From Candidatus Moraniibacteriota bacterium (lineage in GTDB: Bacteria > Patescibacteriota > Minisyncoccia > Moranbacterales > UBA1568): a stretch of DNA of 64,000 nucleotides. Below the pieces are notes generated by a model. The model saw only the letters and a program-made list of their open reading frames with translations. It ran no database searches and was not told the origin of the DNA. Positions 2,256 to 55,203 of this stretch are shown piece by piece. How positions within the stretch are numbered: the first letter of the stretch is position 1; each line of letters opens with the position of its first letter. The position numbers and the translations under genes were made by a program. The stretch spans positions 692,654 through 756,653 of the forward strand of contig CP064974.1 of NCBI GenBank assembly GCA_016699385.1, read 5' to 3'.

Positions 2256-2506
2256 AAAAAACACACGATATTCAAAATTCAAAGAGCGAAAAATGCGCTC
2301 TTTAAAAGTGCCTCCATTGTAGGGAAAAGAAAGCAATTTGTCCACTCAAGCAAAATCCCGACAGAATATGTCGGGATTTTCTTGTTGAGAGGATGTCTCC
2401 CTGTATGGGAGAAAGGGCGGAGATCTCCGTCCCTCTTGTATTGAGGGGCTCGTCCGATAAAGGACAAAGCGATGAGTGGTGGCAAATTGTATATTAGTAT
2501 TGGTGT

Positions 2507-3349
2507 TTACATAGGCGTGGCGTTTCGTGAAGAATTGAGATGAACACGATGAAGGAGCAAGCGATATACAATACCTGCTGCCACAATTTCGAGGCATCCA
2601 ATGAGTCCAAGCGCTATCATGCCAATCGTACGAACCACTGTTTCCGACAACAGAAAGGTCGGAAAGGCTGTTAAAAAGTAATCATCGCGAGGAAGTGAAG
2701 TCGTCTCTGTACGACTTGCAAGAGGAGCTGCTGAAATATCCACATGAGAAGGATGATTCATTGCTTCAGTCTGCTCACGAGAAGCTACTGCTCCTGAAAC
2801 CACTGGAGAATCATTCGAGATATTCTTCCAAGGAGACGTATCAGCAATCGATTCACCAAATCGAGTTCCAAAAAGCTCGACCGTGAGAATCGTTGTCTTC
2901 CCATTCCAAGGAATCTCGGCAACTGCGATACCCGTTTCAACATATTTCGGGGAAAGAATATTCTCTCGATGCTTCTCACTTGCCATCCATGCTGATTCTT
3001 CACTTTCCACGTTTGTAAAATGAATTGCGAGATTCTCTCCGGCATAGCGATAGGTATACCCTGCCTTCTCGAAGAAATACCAAGGCGTCGTGCCATCTGG
3101 CGACGTATGGGAGAAATATTCTTTTGTCGCCATATCCTTTGCCTTCGCTGCTGCCGCCTCAGAAAGAGTCTCGTCAAGACGAAGAGGAGAGAGTCCGGCT
3201 GCCACACGATCCTGATTGACCTGATCAGCAACCTCTTGAGAGGAAAACGTCCCTGATTCCGCAAAAGCCTGCATAGGAACAAAAAGAAGCATGGCGAGAG
3301 CGACACCTTTTGTGAAGCATGTGGCAAATTGAAGGCAAATGTGTTTCAT
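2507..3349 (-). CDS. CAP/SCP/PR-1-like secreted protein (YkwD-like)
   Basis: Signal peptide, a CAP-domain-like core (DRVAAGLSPL...YAGENLA...SEKHRENIL) and a C-terminal hydrophobic anchor. Confidence 0.55.
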   Translation of the reverse strand: MKHICLQFATCFTKGVALAMLLFVPMQAFAESGTFSSQEVADQVNQDRVAAGLSPLRLDETLSEAAAAKAKDMATKEYFSHTSPDGTTPWYFFEKAGYTYRYAGENLAIHFTNVESEESAWMASEKHRENILSPKYVETGIAVAEIPWNGKTTILTVELFGTRFGESIADTSPWKNISNDSPVVSGAVASREQTEAMNHPSHVDISAAPLASRTETTSLPRDDYFLTAFPTFLLSETVVRTIGMIALGLIGCLEIVAAGIVYRLLLHRVHLNSSRNATPM

Positions 3350-3537
3350 AGGGCTTCCCCACAGGGGAAATGCTTAAAAAAAGAGGAAACGGGCGTTGTT
3401 CACCCGTTTCCTCATTGATTACACATCCATTATACCCCAGAAAACCACCCTTGTCAAACTAGACAAAGAAAATCGCGCCTCCTCACCGCGACTTTCCAGT
3501 CCTCCCTCTTCACCTCTATCAAACAACATCGAAAATC

Positions 3538-3948
3538 TTATGGACCAAAAAACACATCTCGAAAGGTCTCCGGCGTCTTTTCGTGTTCCGCCACTCGCGC
3601 ATCAAGCATACCAAGCGCTGAATTGAATCGTTCCTGTTGAAACTTCACTTGCTTGTTCTTGGACAGCCGATAGGATTGTTCTTCATCGGCACTCCAGTGA
3701 AACGCATACAGACTCTGATACCACGAAAAAACTCCCAAACCGGCAACAACAAGAAAAAGGAGGAGGAATACCCATGAGCTCCACTGCCGCCACCAAAGCC
3801 CTGCAACTCCAAGCGACCTCGAAAGAGAAAAATTCTTCGGAAGAGAAAGTGTCAACATAGCGCGTATGATAAAACTAGGGAGTGGTATAGATAACCGTCG
3901 AAAAAGATGCCTGCACTTCTGGAGGACGCTCTGGAGATACTTGCACAT
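3538..3948 (-). CDS. Small membrane protein (hypothetical), last gene of the pilus operon; the real start is probably M31 near 3858
   Basis: One predicted TM helix. The ORF as given overlaps the upstream gene by 74 nt, so an internal ATG start is more likely. Confidence 0.25.
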   Translation of the reverse strand: MCKYLQSVLQKCRHLFRRLSIPLPSFIIRAMLTLSLPKNFSLSRSLGVAGLWWRQWSSWVFLLLFLVVAGLGVFSWYQSLYAFHWSADEEQSYRLSKNKQVKFQQERFNSALGMLDARVAEHEKTPETFRDVFFGP

Positions 3949-4666
3949 CCTGAGGAGATGCTACCGACACAGAGGACGATTTCACAGCAAAAGGACTCGA
4001 TGAAACACCAGACACAGAAACCGGCACTGACTGCCCATCATCCGCTGTTTCTGCTGGAGAAATCTCCACAGACAACACATCGAGCAATACCGGCATCGTA
4101 TCGAGCTTCTGAAGAAATGCAAGCACATGATTATACGTACCCGTTACCTTGAACGTGATAAAGATAGATCGCTCTTCTGGCAACAACGACACAAGTATAT
4201 CTTTTGTCGGTGCCTCCCCCGTTTTTTCTGAGGACGCCGGTTCATCACTCGTTGGTACAACACTCTTCACCAACATCTTCTTTGCCGGAGGAGCCGCAAG
4301 AAGTGAAGTTGGAGAAGCCTCAGAGAGTACGGAAACACCAAGCTCCTGTCCAATTGACTCAAGAGACTCTACCAGCGAAACAATATGATCTTTCGGCAAA
4401 AAAACTTCGAGCTTTCCGTCCGCCGCCTGGATACGCTCCCACGTCTCACGCATGTTAGAAATCCCTGCTGATTGCTCTTCGAGCATCTTTCTATCAACCA
4501 TCGCCTGTTGAATCGACTCCATCTTTCCTTGATTGTTCTCCAAGATACGAACGACACCGAAGTAGATAAGCGCCACAAAAAACCCCGTCATACCAAGAGC
4601 GACGATAATTTCCCGTGATTGTTTCCAAAAAATTAACATACCAGGAAGATAAGAAATCTTTAACAA
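3875..4666 (-). CDS. pilO: PilO-like type IV pilus assembly protein
   Basis: N-terminal TM helix followed by a coiled-coil and a periplasmic domain. It lies directly downstream of pilN and pilM on the same strand. Confidence 0.45.
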   Translation of the reverse strand: MLKISYLPGMLIFWKQSREIIVALGMTGFFVALIYFGVVRILENNQGKMESIQQAMVDRKMLEEQSAGISNMRETWERIQAADGKLEVFLPKDHIVSLVESLESIGQELGVSVLSEASPTSLLAAPPAKKMLVKSVVPTSDEPASSEKTGEAPTKDILVSLLPEERSIFITFKVTGTYNHVLAFLQKLDTMPVLLDVLSVEISPAETADDGQSVPVSVSGVSSSPFAVKSSSVSVASPQDVQVSPERPPEVQASFSTVIYTTP

Positions 4667-23180: not shown

Positions 23181-23452
23181 AGAGTTATTATTTTAATAGT
23201 CTACTTATGCAACCAGGTAGGTGTCTTTCTCTCATGCGACAGAAAAGATACACCCACTAAAGACTAAGAAGCCGGAAAAGAAGATGAAGATGGGGCTCCA
23301 TGTGATCGCGATACCCCAAAGAAGCAATGCCATTCCGATGATGAGTAAAATTATGCGCCCGTCCGTCACTCTCCTCATCGCGCACACAATCCATTACCAG
23401 TGTACTCGAAATTGCCAAAGAAAGCATCCACTCCACTATTCATCGTTCGTTT

Positions 23453-23968
23453 TCACTGAGAGGAATTCATAGATCGCTTCACTGCAGCTTCAAGTTCTTC
23501 GGGAACATCCGTTCCTATGCGATAGACTTTTCCATTTTTCAGAGTTATCTCAACCGCATCAAAACCCGAAACATTGTATATCCACATTTTGGGCCACAGC
23601 CACAATCGTATTCCCCATCCATAATACCAACGATTCTTTACCGATCTGACTGAAGCTATCTGATCCAGCGCAAACTTCTTGGAAAAAATTCCGCAACCAA
23701 ATTTGATCCGAAGAAAATTTTCATCAATCAAGACTGTTAGCGTGACAAACGATGCAAGCACAAACAGAATAAACACCATTACAGCAGAAATGGCGAAATT
23801 TGGACCAGAGTCAACTGAAGGAGGCTCAGCCAAAGCCGAAATATAAACCCTCACAAAGAGCCCCAGCACGGCCAACAGAACAACCAACATCAGATATCCA
23901 ATTTGCGTGTGTTTGTATGGAGTCATAGATTTTGATTCCAACCGGTGATGGAGATTTCTCAATACCAC
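23453..23968 (-). CDS. Hypothetical membrane protein
   Basis: Two TM helices plus a C-terminal soluble domain. No motif recognised. Confidence 0.3.
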   Translation of the reverse strand: MVLRNLHHRLESKSMTPYKHTQIGYLMLVVLLAVLGLFVRVYISALAEPPSVDSGPNFAISAVMVFILFVLASFVTLTVLIDENFLRIKFGCGIFSKKFALDQIASVRSVKNRWYYGWGIRLWLWPKMWIYNVSGFDAVEITLKNGKVYRIGTDVPEELEAAVKRSMNSSQ

Positions 23969-24232
23969 AGGCTTGATACAGAAAGAGTAAGATGAAATAA
24001 GAGCGAACTTGCTTAATGTTCAATTGAAAGATTTAACAACATTTTTTCATTACATTCTCGCTTTCACATATCCACAGCGAGCTTGTCTCACACCATAGCC
24101 ACACACTTCAGGGTAGTGCGCATAACAGTGTTTCTCTCTGGATAAATTAAATCTTTAAAGGTTTTTGCATTTGAGTAACGAAAAATAATATTTCGAGCGA
24201 CTTCTGGCGACCCGTTTCCACGCCAACAAGAT

Positions 24233-24436
24233 CTATGATCCCGTCCATTCTTCCTCGCATTCAGCACAACGGTTATTTCCAGTATGCTCAAACATGTCGG
24301 TAAAGCCGTTTGGCTGATACATCCTCTCCTTATCACTCCAAAAAAACTCGTCATCAATAAGTGTTTCAACGAACTTGCGCTCTGCCCCACAATGTTGGCA
24401 CGCATGTTTTGGGTATTTTTTTGTTTCACTCTTCAT
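24233..24436 (-). CDS. Small zinc-ribbon protein (CxxC...CxxC)
   Basis: 67 aa with CQHCG and CAEC pairs. It starts 27 nt after the stop of the DpnI-like gene on the same strand. Confidence 0.3.
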   Translation of the reverse strand: MKSETKKYPKHACQHCGAERKFVETLIDDEFFWSDKERMYQPNGFTDMFEHTGNNRCAECEEEWTGS

Positions 24437-24462
24437 GCCCAGATCTTTGATCGAATCTATTC

Positions 24463-25230
24463 TTATGTCAAGCGATATTTTCCATCCCCCACAAACTCGA
24501 GATACCCCTTATCCCGTAAAAATTGTAACTGCTGTCTTACTTTTGGCTTAATATTCTTGTTTTCAGGGTGAATTACAGATAAATCACTCTCAAAAGCATA
24601 CACTTCTTGCAATGTAAATTCTTTTTTATTAATTGAATCAACGCAATTCATAATATCCAAAATCCAACCCTTAGCATCAGTTTTTTTAACTTTTTTCAGA
24701 AATACGGTCTTTTGCCATTTTTCCAAAACATCTTTTTTGGCAAGCTCTTTCCCGTTTTCGATATAGAAAATTTGTCCTGCTTTTGGTATTTTAGAGAATA
24801 AAATATTTGAACCAATCCAACCAGCTCGCCTTGCGTTTTCTGCTAGAGGTTTTCGTTTTTCGATAATTTCAGAAACAAAAAAATGCTTTGGAATAACAAA
24901 AAAATCATTAACGCTTAACATCTCCAAAAGATAGTTCATGAAAAAGAAATTTGGTTTTCCATTGGAGTTAATCCTCTCTACCATTTTTGAGTAAGCGCCT
25001 GCAGATACCTTTTTTCCAAACTTTCTCTGTTTTGATTTAAGTTCAAAGTCTTCCATGCATTTCACACAATAAAAATCAGCAACAGGCCTGTTATTTTGAT
25101 ATTCAAAAATTGATTCGCCGCAACTTGGACAATAAATTTCTCGCAAAACCCAGCCCTCACTCAAAACTCGGATTTTTTGAGAGGAGCTGGTATAGTTCGC
25201 TATTAAATTTTCATCAAAAGTCAGCTTCAT
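24463..25230 (-). CDS. dpnC: DpnI-like type IIM methyl-directed restriction endonuclease (cuts Gm6ATC)
   Basis: 255 aa, co-linear with S. pneumoniae DpnI: SSQKIRVLSEGWVLREIYCPSCG...NNRPVADFYCVKCMEDFELKSKQ...RKPLAENARRAGWIGSNI...QQLQFLRDKGYLEFVGDGKYRLT. This gives an N-terminal PD-(D/E)XK catalytic domain and a C-terminal winged helix. Confidence 0.85.
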   Translation of the reverse strand: MKLTFDENLIANYTSSSQKIRVLSEGWVLREIYCPSCGESIFEYQNNRPVADFYCVKCMEDFELKSKQRKFGKKVSAGAYSKMVERINSNGKPNFFFMNYLLEMLSVNDFFVIPKHFFVSEIIEKRKPLAENARRAGWIGSNILFSKIPKAGQIFYIENGKELAKKDVLEKWQKTVFLKKVKKTDAKGWILDIMNCVDSINKKEFTLQEVYAFESDLSVIHPENKNIKPKVRQQLQFLRDKGYLEFVGDGKYRLT

Positions 25231-25247
25231 GTGTTTCCAAATTTTAG

Positions 25248-25460
25248 CTACTGTCCGATATTTTCGGACACTTCAGAGTAGCCCTCTTTTATAAGTTTTT
25301 TCTTGAGGTCGCTCCAATATTTTCGGGGGCGCGCGGTATCTGTTAAAACCTCGATAACATCAATTATAGAAAACCACCATTCATTTTTATAAAGAATCTT
25401 TCGAACTTCCTTTTTCTGAAATATCACTATCTTGGTACTTGTTTGATTTTGCGTGGTCAT
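25248..25460 (-). CDS. Bro-N / DinD-like N-terminal domain small protein
   Basis: KIVIFQKKEVRKILYKNEWWFSIIDVIEVL fits the Bro-N pattern (F.F..vR....e.wF...Dv...L). It is translationally coupled to the HTH gene by a 4-nt overlap. Confidence 0.35.
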   Translation of the reverse strand: MTTQNQTSTKIVIFQKKEVRKILYKNEWWFSIIDVIEVLTDTARPRKYWSDLKKKLIKEGYSEVSENIGQ

Positions 25461-25462
25461 AA

Positions 25463-25669
25463 TTATTTCAAAAGTTCGTTAATCGGAACACCTAGAGCCT
25501 TGGCCAGATTCGCAATAGTCGAAAGCGTCGGATTTGTCTTCCCATTCTCAATGTTGCTAATAAAAGATTTATCAACAGCGAGTTGTCTGGCAATCTCGGT
25601 CTGAGTAGTATTTTTCCTTGTTCTGATTTCCTTGAGATTTTCTCCAAGCTTTTTCGAGTAGTCTTCCAT
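25463..25669 (-). CDS. XRE-family HTH transcriptional regulator (controller-protein-like)
   Basis: 68 aa containing QTEIARQLAVDKSFISNIENGKTNPTLSTIANLAKALGV, the classic Cro/C1 HTH. Confidence 0.8.
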   Translation of the reverse strand: MEDYSKKLGENLKEIRTRKNTTQTEIARQLAVDKSFISNIENGKTNPTLSTIANLAKALGVPINELLK

Positions 25670-25687
25670 AAAAAGAATATATCACAC

Positions 25688-25709
25688 TTGTTGTATTTTA
25701 CTACAACAA
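25688..25709. promoter_or_regulatory. Inverted repeat TTGTTGTA-N6-TACAACAA upstream of the HTH gene (candidate operator)
   Basis: A perfect 8-bp arm inverted repeat lies 19-40 bp upstream of the HTH start codon. This geometry is typical of C-protein or XRE autoregulatory operators. Confidence 0.35.
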
Positions 25710-26076
25710 TATAACTTTTTGCAAATACAATTTGGGAGCAAGAAAAGGCCGGAAAACGGGCTCACTATTATGCAATAAAGTTCGAGATTCAGAGGTTTTC
25801 AAAAATGCAAAAGTTCTTTCTGGGGACGAAAGAAGAGGTCAGTATCCCAGGTATCGATATTCAAGGGTATGCCAAGTACCTTCTCCGAAGAGGAACAAAC
25901 GAGGAGAAGCGAGAAATACTCGGTTGTTTAAAAAGTCGGATCTATCCCACTCAGAAGAAGATTACTCTAGAAAGGTAACCAAAGATCAAGGCAAGTAAAA
26001 AGCACGGAAATCCCGTGCTTTTTACTTTGTAACCGACCAATATTGCAGGTAAGCATCTCATGCTACCTGCTGACTG

Positions 26077-26163
26077 CGGAGAGGCAGGGATTCGAACCCT
26101 GGAAGGGGTTTCCCCCTTAACACATTAGCAGTGTGCTGCTTTCAGCCGCTCAGCCACCTCTCC
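26077..26163 (-). tRNA. tRNA-Ser (anticodon GCT), type II with long variable arm
   Basis: GGAGAGG acceptor, 3-bp D stem, anticodon stem GCACA/TGTGT with loop CTGCTAA, variable arm GGGGG/CCCCT, T arm CAGGG TTCGAAT CCCTG, discriminator G. Confidence 0.8.
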
Positions 26164-26528
26164 AAATTCTCTGGTAACGATTTTTCAAACAACTTGCCTC
26201 TCGGAAATCCACCAACCCCTCTGAAGATGCACACAAACCAGGTGCAAGGAGGCACAAGGCGTGCATAGGAGCAGTGTATCACTGCCAAACGCCCTCTGGC
26301 AAGGCGAGAATGCACATGTCAGCCCGCAAGCCCCACCTCTTGCACAAAGATGAGAAGCATGCTACACTTGCGCCAGTAGTAAGTTTTCTCTCAATGGGTT
26401 TCTAGCGAAATCCCGCTTCGGTGGGATGTTCTAAGGGCGAGATATTCGAGCTTTTAGGGAAAGCGGGAGCAGAGAAAGGAGAAGGTCGACTTACTCGCGT
26501 TACTCTTACCTATAGGATTAGAATCTCT

Positions 26529-54782: not shown

Positions 54783-55183
54783 GGGGTTGTCTAGATTCGA
54801 CAGGATGCACTTTGAAAATACGCAAGCCGATTATGAAGGTGATATCGCAAATCTCTCCTTCACGATGACATCTGCAAACTTCATCACAAAGGCAAAGCAA
54901 GCCTTCGCGCAAGCGTTCCAGCCTGCTTTCGCTTCCGCTCTCGCCTAACTTCGTTCGGTGAGTGCCATCGGACTCCCGACTCCCGATAGGGAATGTTCCG
55001 GTGTTATATTTTCGGGAAAACCCGATACTCTCGCCTCATGGAGTATCGATCGTTTCTGCACATGAGACACGTCGACCCGTTTTCGCACGCTTTTACGGTC
55101 CGACGCATATGAAGCGCGCTATGCTTGTAGACTATTTTTAAACCTCATCACTGGACATGGGTGCAATTCCCATCAACTCCACC
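54783..55183 (+). ncRNA. ssrA: tmRNA (ssrA), standard one-piece form
   Basis: 5' GGGGTTGTCTAGATTCGACAGGA. tRNA-like 3' end GGAC ATGGG TGCAATT CCCAT CAACTCC ACC with a G3:U70 pair. Internal tag reading frame ending ...AFQPAFASALA-TAA. Confidence 0.8.
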
Positions 55184-55203
55184 TATTTTTTTACACAAAA
55201 AGA

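Follow-up and report, generated by a model that had tools for sequence, protein, structure and literature searches.

In a stretch of 64,000 nucleotides (nt) from the genome of a Candidatus Moraniibacteriota bacterium (GenBank contig CP064974.1), hereafter referred to as the window, four co-oriented open reading frames (ORFs) on the minus strand form a small restriction cassette beside a tRNA gene. These encode a 68-amino-acid (aa) helix-turn-helix (HTH) regulator of the XRE family (25463–25669), a 70-aa remnant of a Bro-N gene (25248–25460), a 255-aa Type IIM restriction endonuclease of the DpnI family (24463–25230) and a 67-aa protein carrying four cysteines in a CxxC...CxxC arrangement (24233–24436), with intergenic gaps of 2, 17 and 26 nt between successive genes. 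Positions are given in window numbering, and L-numbers (L005, L173 and so on) designate homologous loci of relatives. The features described in an initial annotation of this DNA were all found in place on the minus strand. As argued below, the region from about 24163 to 26075 is probably what is left, now immobile, of an integrative defence island inserted at the 3′ end of a tRNA-Ser(gct) gene, in which the endonuclease is one of several restriction cargos carried behind a common regulator and operator.

Patescibacteria (the Candidate Phyla Radiation, CPR) have tiny genomes and few CRISPR systems, and restriction enzymes are therefore probably central to their defence. The cassette lies in a trough of G+C content, with values of 0.32–0.37 across 24400–26000 vs 0.41–0.55 in the flanks. 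The tRNA-Ser(gct) gene (26076–26163, minus strand; ARAGORN and Rfam) has its 3′ end pointing toward the cassette, in agreement with the earlier description of an AT-rich segment adjoining a tRNA, and this 3′ end is the probable target of island integration.

The DpnI-family endonuclease

The 255-aa protein combines a PD-(D/E)XK catalytic domain with a winged-helix domain. It matches the Pfam families DpnI (PF06044; 7e-74 over residues 1–180) and DpnI_C (PF17726; 2e-32 over residues 185–253), as well as the PADLOC model mREase_II, 'Type II methyl-directed restriction enzyme' (7e-103). With R.DpnI of Streptococcus pneumoniae (PDB 4esj) it shares 48% identity in an alignment spanning residues 1–253 (E = 3.5e-78), which is the full-length correspondence that the initial annotation had anticipated. 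Every residue with a role in the DpnI structures is conserved: Q18, C34, C37, N48, D53, C56, C59, E64, K66 and R126, and likewise L129, R135, W138, G140, K229 and R231 (DpnI numbering), are identical in the window protein, whose D52, E63 and K65 align to D53, E64 and K66 of DpnI. The cluster C34/C37/C56/C59, all four cysteines of which are aligned and conserved, is presumably the zinc site of DpnI. In DpnI, D53, E64 and K66 are the catalytic residues, Q18, N48, R126 and R135 read out the bases, L129, R135 and W138 form the methyl pocket, G140 packs on W138, and K229A/R231A is a double-alanine variant that has been studied (PMC4117772). K229 and R231 are taken to be winged-helix contacts. Residue conservation thus upholds the assignment to the DpnI family and the Gm6ATC specificity proposed for the protein, and the prediction that it cuts Gm6ATC only is well supported.

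There is nothing unusual about the DpnI gene as such, which belongs to a well-studied family and had been annotated before. In GenBank the cassette proteins are named 'restriction endonuclease' (QQR77182.1, 255 aa), 'helix-turn-helix transcriptional regulator' (QQR77184.1) and 'hypothetical' (QQR77181.1, 67 aa). The endonuclease has more than 5000 homologues; the closest 120 are 73–98% identical to it, all taxon-named ones being Patescibacteria, and the closest genome loci, also mostly from Patescibacteria, show 55–88% identity. An identical 255-aa protein occurs on five other metagenome contigs. A search of phage and plasmid collections brought up Neisseria drg and isolated winged-helix domains but nothing closely related. 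The ratio of non-synonymous to synonymous substitution rates (dN/dS) is 0.06–0.09 for the DpnI gene (vs L005, L007, L008 and L009) and 0.05–0.06 for the 67-aa gene, values that indicate strong purifying selection on both. The initial annotation considered such a system apparently unreported in a genome of this kind. This cannot be said of the gene, in view of its existing annotation and the size of its family; no paper was found on the HTH-led arrangement, and our literature searches on DpnI or on controller-protein control in CPR likewise returned nothing.

Remnants of a larger island

Several neighbouring genes survive only as fragments. Between the tRNA and the HTH gene, on the plus strand, lie the last 65 or so codons of a serine recombinase gene (25775–25978, the ORF part being 25805–25978). 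They are 80% identical to residues 373–437 of the 439-aa recombinase of L173 and 50% identical to L024. About 1.18 kb of the gene has been deleted, L173 1711–2890 being absent from the window by blastn. The 70-aa ORF gives a weak Bro-N match (2e-3) and is 90% identical to residues 1–70 of the protein encoded at L005 4146–5000. The truncation of this gene, recognised in the initial annotation, proves to be an exact deletion of 621 bp relative to L005 (4357–4977). In L005 and L007 the Bro-N gene is intact, encodes 284 aa and overlaps the start of DpnI by 4 nt. The full-length L005 protein matches Bro-N (1.5e-12) and PDC-S13, a candidate single-gene defence family of PADLOC (5e-121), and a DinD-like protein occupying the same slot in L008 also matches PDC-S13 (2e-114) and the Pfam Bro-N family. 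No full-length PDC-S13 protein of about 280 aa is encoded in the window, where only residues 1–70 are kept. At the other end of the cassette, 24163–24255 (minus strand) preserves part of the 5′ end of a DNA methyltransferase gene of the N6_N4 type, which aligns to L008 up to position 4591 and to L007 2324–2398 (88%) and also gives tblastn hits. In L007, L008, L009 and L011 this methyltransferase follows the 67-aa gene at full length (PF01555 1e-20; PADLOC MTase_II 2e-78).

Lateral acquisition of the cassette, which had been proposed from its composition and its position next to a tRNA, is now well supported, since the remnants of serine recombinase and methyltransferase genes and the presence of the same backbone beside tRNA genes in other genomes all point to it. 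The distal end of the island has been lost through deletion and the element is no longer mobile.

Bro-N/PDC-S13 homologues were also seen in other settings. In L102, L123, L133, L148 and L159 their neighbours were judged by eye to be cas genes (e.g. Cas1 downstream), and others adjoin restriction-modification genes; they look like frequent passengers of defence operons. The idea that HTH and Bro-N form a self-contained repressor/antirepressor or toxin–antitoxin pair is contradicted by the contexts of Bro-N homologues: in 80 metagenome loci of close PDC-S13 homologues, the HTH gene was upstream in 0/71 and DpnI downstream in 0/58.

A perfect 15-bp hairpin flanked on either side by T/A runs (25993–26027), terminator-like in appearance, was located by repeat search between the tRNA and the recombinase remnant, and is 94% conserved in L181. 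A consensus scan for terminator-like sites gave none within 23900–26300. Elsewhere in the window, and unrelated to the cassette, a tmRNA gene lies at 54783–55184 (Rfam RF00023, 93.8 bits; not reported by ARAGORN).

A common backbone with exchangeable cargo

The HTH protein has many close homologues with 74–91% identity, and ten of their contexts were retrieved. The genes found behind the regulator differ from one locus to another: T5orf172-HsdM of a Type I system in L173, L174 and L182, T5orf172-HsdR in L178, an 850-aa HsdR-like protein together with an N6_Mtase/Eco57I protein in L183–L185, and a HaeIII-type endonuclease with a C5 methyltransferase and SIR2 in L186. Several of these loci carry a divergent 439-aa large serine recombinase (Pfam Resolvase and Recombinase in L173), and several adjoin tRNA genes. 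The composite nature of the locus is apparent in blastn alignments, in which homology to the L173 backbone covers window positions 25969–25784 and 25779–25457, and homology to the L005 cargo runs from 25476 downward. As the backbone ends at 25457 and the cargo starts at 25476, the junction must fall where the HTH gene stops and the next gene starts. The tRNA 3′ end and the DNA downstream of it align with the region beside tRNA-Asp in L173 and tRNA-Ser in L175; the recombinase gene adjoins the tRNA 3′ end in the window, and its intact versions likewise stand beside tRNA genes in these two loci.

The initial annotation regarded the HTH protein as the own controller of DpnI. This does not agree with the finding that Type I, HaeIII-type and HsdR-like operons begin with homologues 74–91% identical to it, under the same operator. 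Judged from these contexts, the HTH protein is a shared leader of interchangeable restriction cargo and not a controller evolved for DpnI.

The slot that follows the HTH gene after a 2-nt gap is itself always occupied by a phage-type DNA-binding-domain protein, T5orf172/MUG113, Bro-N or DinD-like, which is often truncated (L173 3210–3806, L178 1519–2124, L182 1454–2056, L175 3210–3374). It is shortened to 54 aa in L175–L177 and to 70 aa in the window. In L005, a partial second tRNA-Ser 3′ end (3536–3623 and 3760–3790) is present about 140 nt past the tRNA and before the HTH-led cassette, which suggests successive integrations at that tRNA.

The HTH regulator, its promoter and its operator

The regulator matches Pfam HTH_3 (4e-17) and, among PADLOC models, HTH_VI (1.6e-17), Control_protein (2e-12, over the full model length) and capH (2.6e-12); its matches in PDB, at about 1e-7, are DdrOC, C.BclI and C.AhdI. 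Its gene, the first of the cargo operon, lies 233 nt upstream of DpnI with only the 70-aa remnant in between. A sigma-70-like promoter precedes it on the minus strand (25695–25724), consisting of a -35 box TTGCAA (25724–25719), an 18-nt spacer and a -10 box TAAAAT (25700–25695). The -10 box occupies the centre of a 22-bp palindromic operator (25688–25709), a perfect inverted repeat TTGTTGTA-N6-TACAACAA that reads TTGTTGTA-GTAAAA-TACAACAA on the minus strand and is situated 19–40 nt upstream of the HTH start. The only other repeat at this promoter is a half-site-like copy, TTGTATTT, near the -35 box.

Such a repeat arises in about 4% of simulated 135-nt AT-rich intergenic regions, and 62 are present in the window. 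In isolation the palindrome is weak evidence, and it is comparative invariance that makes it significant. The 22-bp TTGTTGTAGTAAAATACAACAA is invariant upstream of the HTH start in the window and in six independent loci, L173, L175, L178, L179, L181 and L182, in which the HTH homologues are 79–100% identical and the DNA at -45 to -70 differs. In L183–L186 a near-identical variant, TTGTTGTAGTTTAATACAAC, is found in the same position. A TTGnnA -35 box recurs at the same distance in the homologous loci, as does the -10 box. An operator that stays invariant across relatives while adjacent DNA varies supports the earlier proposal that the HTH gene and the palindrome constitute a real regulatory unit. 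Because binding over the -10 box should occlude RNA polymerase, simple autorepression is the most economical reading of how the HTH protein would regulate.

C-protein-style control, as put forward in the initial annotation, implies a different logic. A classical controller (C) protein would act first as a delayed activator and then as a repressor, timing DpnI expression after the entry of the island into a new cell. This would fit the full-length match to the Control_protein models, the presence of C.BclI and C.AhdI among the top PDB matches, the position of the HTH gene at the head of an operon containing a restriction enzyme, and the 76%-identical homologue that leads a C-R-M-like HaeIII-type operon in L186. 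However, XRE proteins that are not C proteins (DdrO, CylR2, HipB, CapH, HTH_VI) match the regulator as well or better. For most C proteins the C-box operators are a tandem pair of sites that lie over the -35 box or upstream of it, typically with a conserved GTG spacer, and single-palindrome motif classes are also listed among C-protein operators (PMC2632904). The HTH promoter bears one palindrome, on its -10 box, and no classical C-box, that is, two tandem palindromes at or upstream of the -35 box with a GTG spacer. Furthermore, a delay would serve no protective methyltransferase in the case of a Type IIM enzyme, and no cognate protective methyltransferase was found in the window, where only the 93-nt remnant of the N6_N4 gene is left. 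In addition, intact DpnI genes survive beside HTH pseudogenes in L006 and L015. Altogether, a classical C protein at this locus seems doubtful. The HTH gene is a small XRE-type gene upstream of and co-oriented with a restriction gene, and its homologues directly precede HsdR-like and HaeIII-type genes; in its role it resembles a leader regulator for restriction operons, and it may fall within the C-protein group in a broad sense.

It is improbable that the HTH protein is chiefly an immunity-type repressor of the divergent recombinase, and hence of mobility, with an incidental link to DpnI. HTH and serine recombinase genes do diverge around a conserved intergenic region in L173–L182, but the palindrome covers the -10 box of HTH, about 125 nt from the recombinase start, and L183–L186 keep the regulator, the operator and the cargo without any recombinase. 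An association specific to DpnI is not apparent either: an intact HTH gene was found upstream in only 4 of about 79 distinct DpnI loci (L005, L007, L008 and L068), and these four HTH proteins are 34–63% identical to that of the window and have different repeats.

The zinc-ribbon partner gene

The zinc-ribbon neighbour mentioned in the initial annotation is confirmed as the 67-aa CxxC...CxxC gene downstream of DpnI. It is a conserved partner of this DpnI clade. Among the first 84 loci, 16 have it about 30 nt downstream of DpnI, and it was also present in all four further contexts examined. The family is small, with only 64 clusters and no Pfam domain; C13, C16 and C60 are invariant and C57 is nearly so. 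Other DpnI loci have unrelated small genes in the same position. Homology to DpnD was considered and rejected, as Pfam gave no DpnD/PcfM hit at E values up to 0.1 and PADLOC and NCBIfam gave none. Structure prediction with AlphaFold was poor (pLDDT 67, pTM 0.36), and a Foldseek search against PDB returned nothing below E = 1.

An overlapping 113-aa ORF (24088–24429, minus strand) was rejected as the coding frame, being less conserved than the 67-aa frame (68% vs 88% to L008), for which dN/dS is 0.05. Metagenome gene callers picked this overlapping frame (a 105-aa ORF at L001 2001–2318), which is the wrong one over the zinc-ribbon gene; the tail of the 113-aa ORF is the methyltransferase remnant.

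A GATC-pair element between DpnI and its partner

The DpnI and zinc-ribbon genes are separated by an element with two GATC sites, TTGACA-N13-GATCAAAGAT(C) (24443–24471, minus strand). In 47 distinct loci, TTGA(C/T)-N12-15-GATCAA directly follows the DpnI stop codon, and most of them run on to a second GATC, giving TTGACW-N13-GATCAANGATC. Across 850 kb of DpnI loci there are 39 copies of this full motif, 37 of them just 3′ of DpnI on the same strand and the remaining two ahead of partner genes; it is found once in the window and not at all in 375 kb of control loci. Besides the window, carriers include L005, L008, L009, L015–L017, L019, L020, L022, L026, L027, L030–L032 and L034–L036, among others. 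The GATC-pair element is strongly conserved, and is so across Patescibacteria.

Read as a promoter, the window element has a -35 box, a 17-nt spacer and a -10 box AANGAT, with the partner ATG 6 nt downstream. The partner start codon falls 15–19 nt after the first G (6–10 nt after the -10 box) in 28 of 42 loci. Such spacing is that of a leaderless promoter, and the zinc-ribbon gene is probably transcribed separately from the element. An RNA hairpin was considered as an explanation and set aside, the folding signal being weak (mean z about -1.5 against mononucleotide shuffles) and the promoter geometry fitting better. A second GATC-N3-GATC pair at the zinc-ribbon stop codon (24230–24240) is not conserved in other loci and is probably due to chance.

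The -10 box and the bases immediately ahead of it hold two target sites of Dam and DpnI. It is conceivable, if speculative, that the element is a methylation-sensitive leaderless promoter, through which GATC methylation would set the expression of the partner, as a built-in sensor of Dam activity, and that the partner could in turn modulate DpnI. We know of no methylation-sensing promoter wired to a methylation-dependent nuclease. The GATC-pair element could help to explain how methylation-dependent enzymes are controlled or kept from doing harm.

GATC methylation and traces of methyltransferase genes

A methylation-dependent enzyme needs no protective methylation, and the locus predicts that the lineage lacks GATC methylation. 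GATC sites occur throughout the window, as had been remarked in the initial annotation: 193 were counted, with an observed/expected ratio of 0.62. In a cluster of seven loci that includes L009 and L011, a Dam-like D12 gene is located about 4 nt upstream of DpnI. In L009 (5254–5997) and L011 (5260–5997) it ends shortly past the DPPY motif, and DpnI begins 4 nt after. In L068, DpnI is preceded by a 78-aa fragment (2409–2645), which we take to resemble the N-terminus of DpnA. From their arrangement, the truncated D12 genes and the L068 fragment look like scars of 'dam-replacement', echoing the history of Neisseria (PMC516771, PMC4269198).

GGCC is strongly avoided in the window, with 29 sites observed vs 131 expected (ratio 0.22). 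In L186, which comes from a related genome, a HaeIII-type endonuclease and a C5 methyltransferase (3336–4166) occupy the same HTH-led slot, with similar neighbours (DUF1295, TspO). No HaeIII-like gene is present in the window.

A decayed but probably functional defence island

Sequence comparison establishes what the genes are, which parts were deleted, that operator and element are conserved, and that one modular backbone carries different cargos; repression, cleavage specificity, leaderless transcription and the methylation state of the host are inferred. The island backbone has a large serine recombinase gene facing one way and, facing the opposite way, the HTH gene, transcribed from a sigma-70-type promoter with its -10 box inside the 22-bp palindrome. 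The original cargo here would have comprised the Bro-N/PDC-S13 gene, the DpnI-family endonuclease, the 67-aa zinc-ribbon gene and the N6_N4 methyltransferase. Later deletions took away most of the recombinase, most of Bro-N and nearly all of the methyltransferase, leaving HTH, DpnI and the zinc-ribbon gene. A dimer of the HTH protein bound to the palindrome would block RNA polymerase, so that the operon is autorepressed and DpnI is kept low and steady. The endonuclease would bind fully methylated Gm6ATC through both of its domains and cut it. Dam-methylated phage or plasmid DNA would be restricted in this way, the GATC sites of the host being unmethylated, and the zinc-ribbon gene would be transcribed separately, as a leaderless mRNA, from the GATC-bearing element after the DpnI stop codon.

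Several observations weigh against parts of this reconstruction. Direct repeats of the att type were not detected: the window has no second tRNA 3′ end, and no convincing repeat spans 23400–26250. According to a consensus scan, a weak internal promoter-like site at 25346–25319 might also drive DpnI transcription, and the persistence of DpnI in L006 without an intact HTH gene implies that HTH control may matter little for DpnI. As to the methylation state, the result that tblastn and a motif scan found no DNA methyltransferase, Dam-type included, in the window speaks for the reconstruction, but it covers 64 kb of a 1.11-Mb genome. Finally, in L170 the DpnI homologue is immediately preceded by a D12 methyltransferase gene (2357–3223) that is full-length but divergent; either the rule that DpnI occurs without a GATC methyltransferase is not absolute, or this D12 enzyme has a different specificity.

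Very little speaks for the cassette being a non-functional fossil, with a DpnI that is no longer expressed or active and is merely the last piece to decay: three neighbours (recombinase, Bro-N and methyltransferase) have indeed been deleted already, but the DpnI, HTH and zinc-ribbon ORFs are intact with all functional residues present, dN/dS is below 0.1 (although a longer shared past accounts for most of this figure), promoter and operator show no damage and do not differ from those of relatives that look active, and five other assemblies contain the same sequence.

A remnant island with a working DpnI cargo remains the interpretation that we favour. On this interpretation, Patescibacteria carry DpnI-type enzymes as one of several exchangeable cargos behind a common regulator and operator, which offers a concrete and testable model for the exchange of restriction specificities in this group.

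Comparison with known systems

We found no description of a regulator–operator leader with swappable restriction cargo in Patescibacteria, nor of a GATC-pair element coupled to a small partner gene. The parts of the cassette are themselves known: its Type IIM enzyme belongs to the DpnI family, its leader regulator to the XRE family, and its island to the tRNA-targeting kind with a serine recombinase.

The closest counterpart of the enzyme is R.DpnI of S. pneumoniae (dpnC-dpnD; PDB 4esj, 4kyw), which has the same two-domain architecture and is co-linear with the window protein over 251 residues. In the pneumococcal cassette the endonuclease gene is likewise followed by a small gene of unknown function, dpnD (PMC4471560). 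The match is positional only, since the downstream gene of the window encodes a 67-aa four-cysteine protein without a DpnD/PcfM match. Moreover, the pneumococcal cassette resides in a fixed chromosomal slot and is exchanged by homologous recombination, whereas that of the window lies behind an HTH gene on a tRNA-adjacent recombinase island and has a GATC-pair element between its two genes. Drg of Neisseria is also a laterally acquired, GmeATC-specific endonuclease of the DpnI family with low G+C relative to its host (PMC4269198, PMC516771). It is only about 41% identical to the window protein, stands in place of dam at the leuS/dam locus and is accompanied by neither an HTH gene, nor a zinc-ribbon partner, nor the GATC-pair element. 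Truncated Dam-like genes beside DpnI, reminiscent of the Neisseria situation, are seen in the relatives L009, L011 and L068 but not in the window.

With C-protein operons (C.PvuII, C.AhdI, C.BclI, C.Esp1396I) the cassette shares an XRE HTH gene in first position, a restriction gene in the same operon and a palindrome at the regulator's own promoter, and its HTH protein resembles C.BclI, C.AhdI and the PADLOC Control_protein models in sequence. It differs from them in its single palindrome over the -10 box, in place of tandem C-boxes with a GTG spacer (PMC2632904), in its methylation-dependent enzyme without a cognate methyltransferase in the window, and in a regulator and operator that serve several types of cargo.

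Lastly, the island in the window differs from tRNA-targeting integrative defence islands with a large serine recombinase in that its recombinase is reduced to the last 65 or so codons and its att repeats are undetectable, so that it is no longer able to move. The likeness to these islands lies in the location at a tRNA 3′ end, the deviant base composition, the tRNA-proximal position of the recombinase and a defence cargo that differs from genome to genome.

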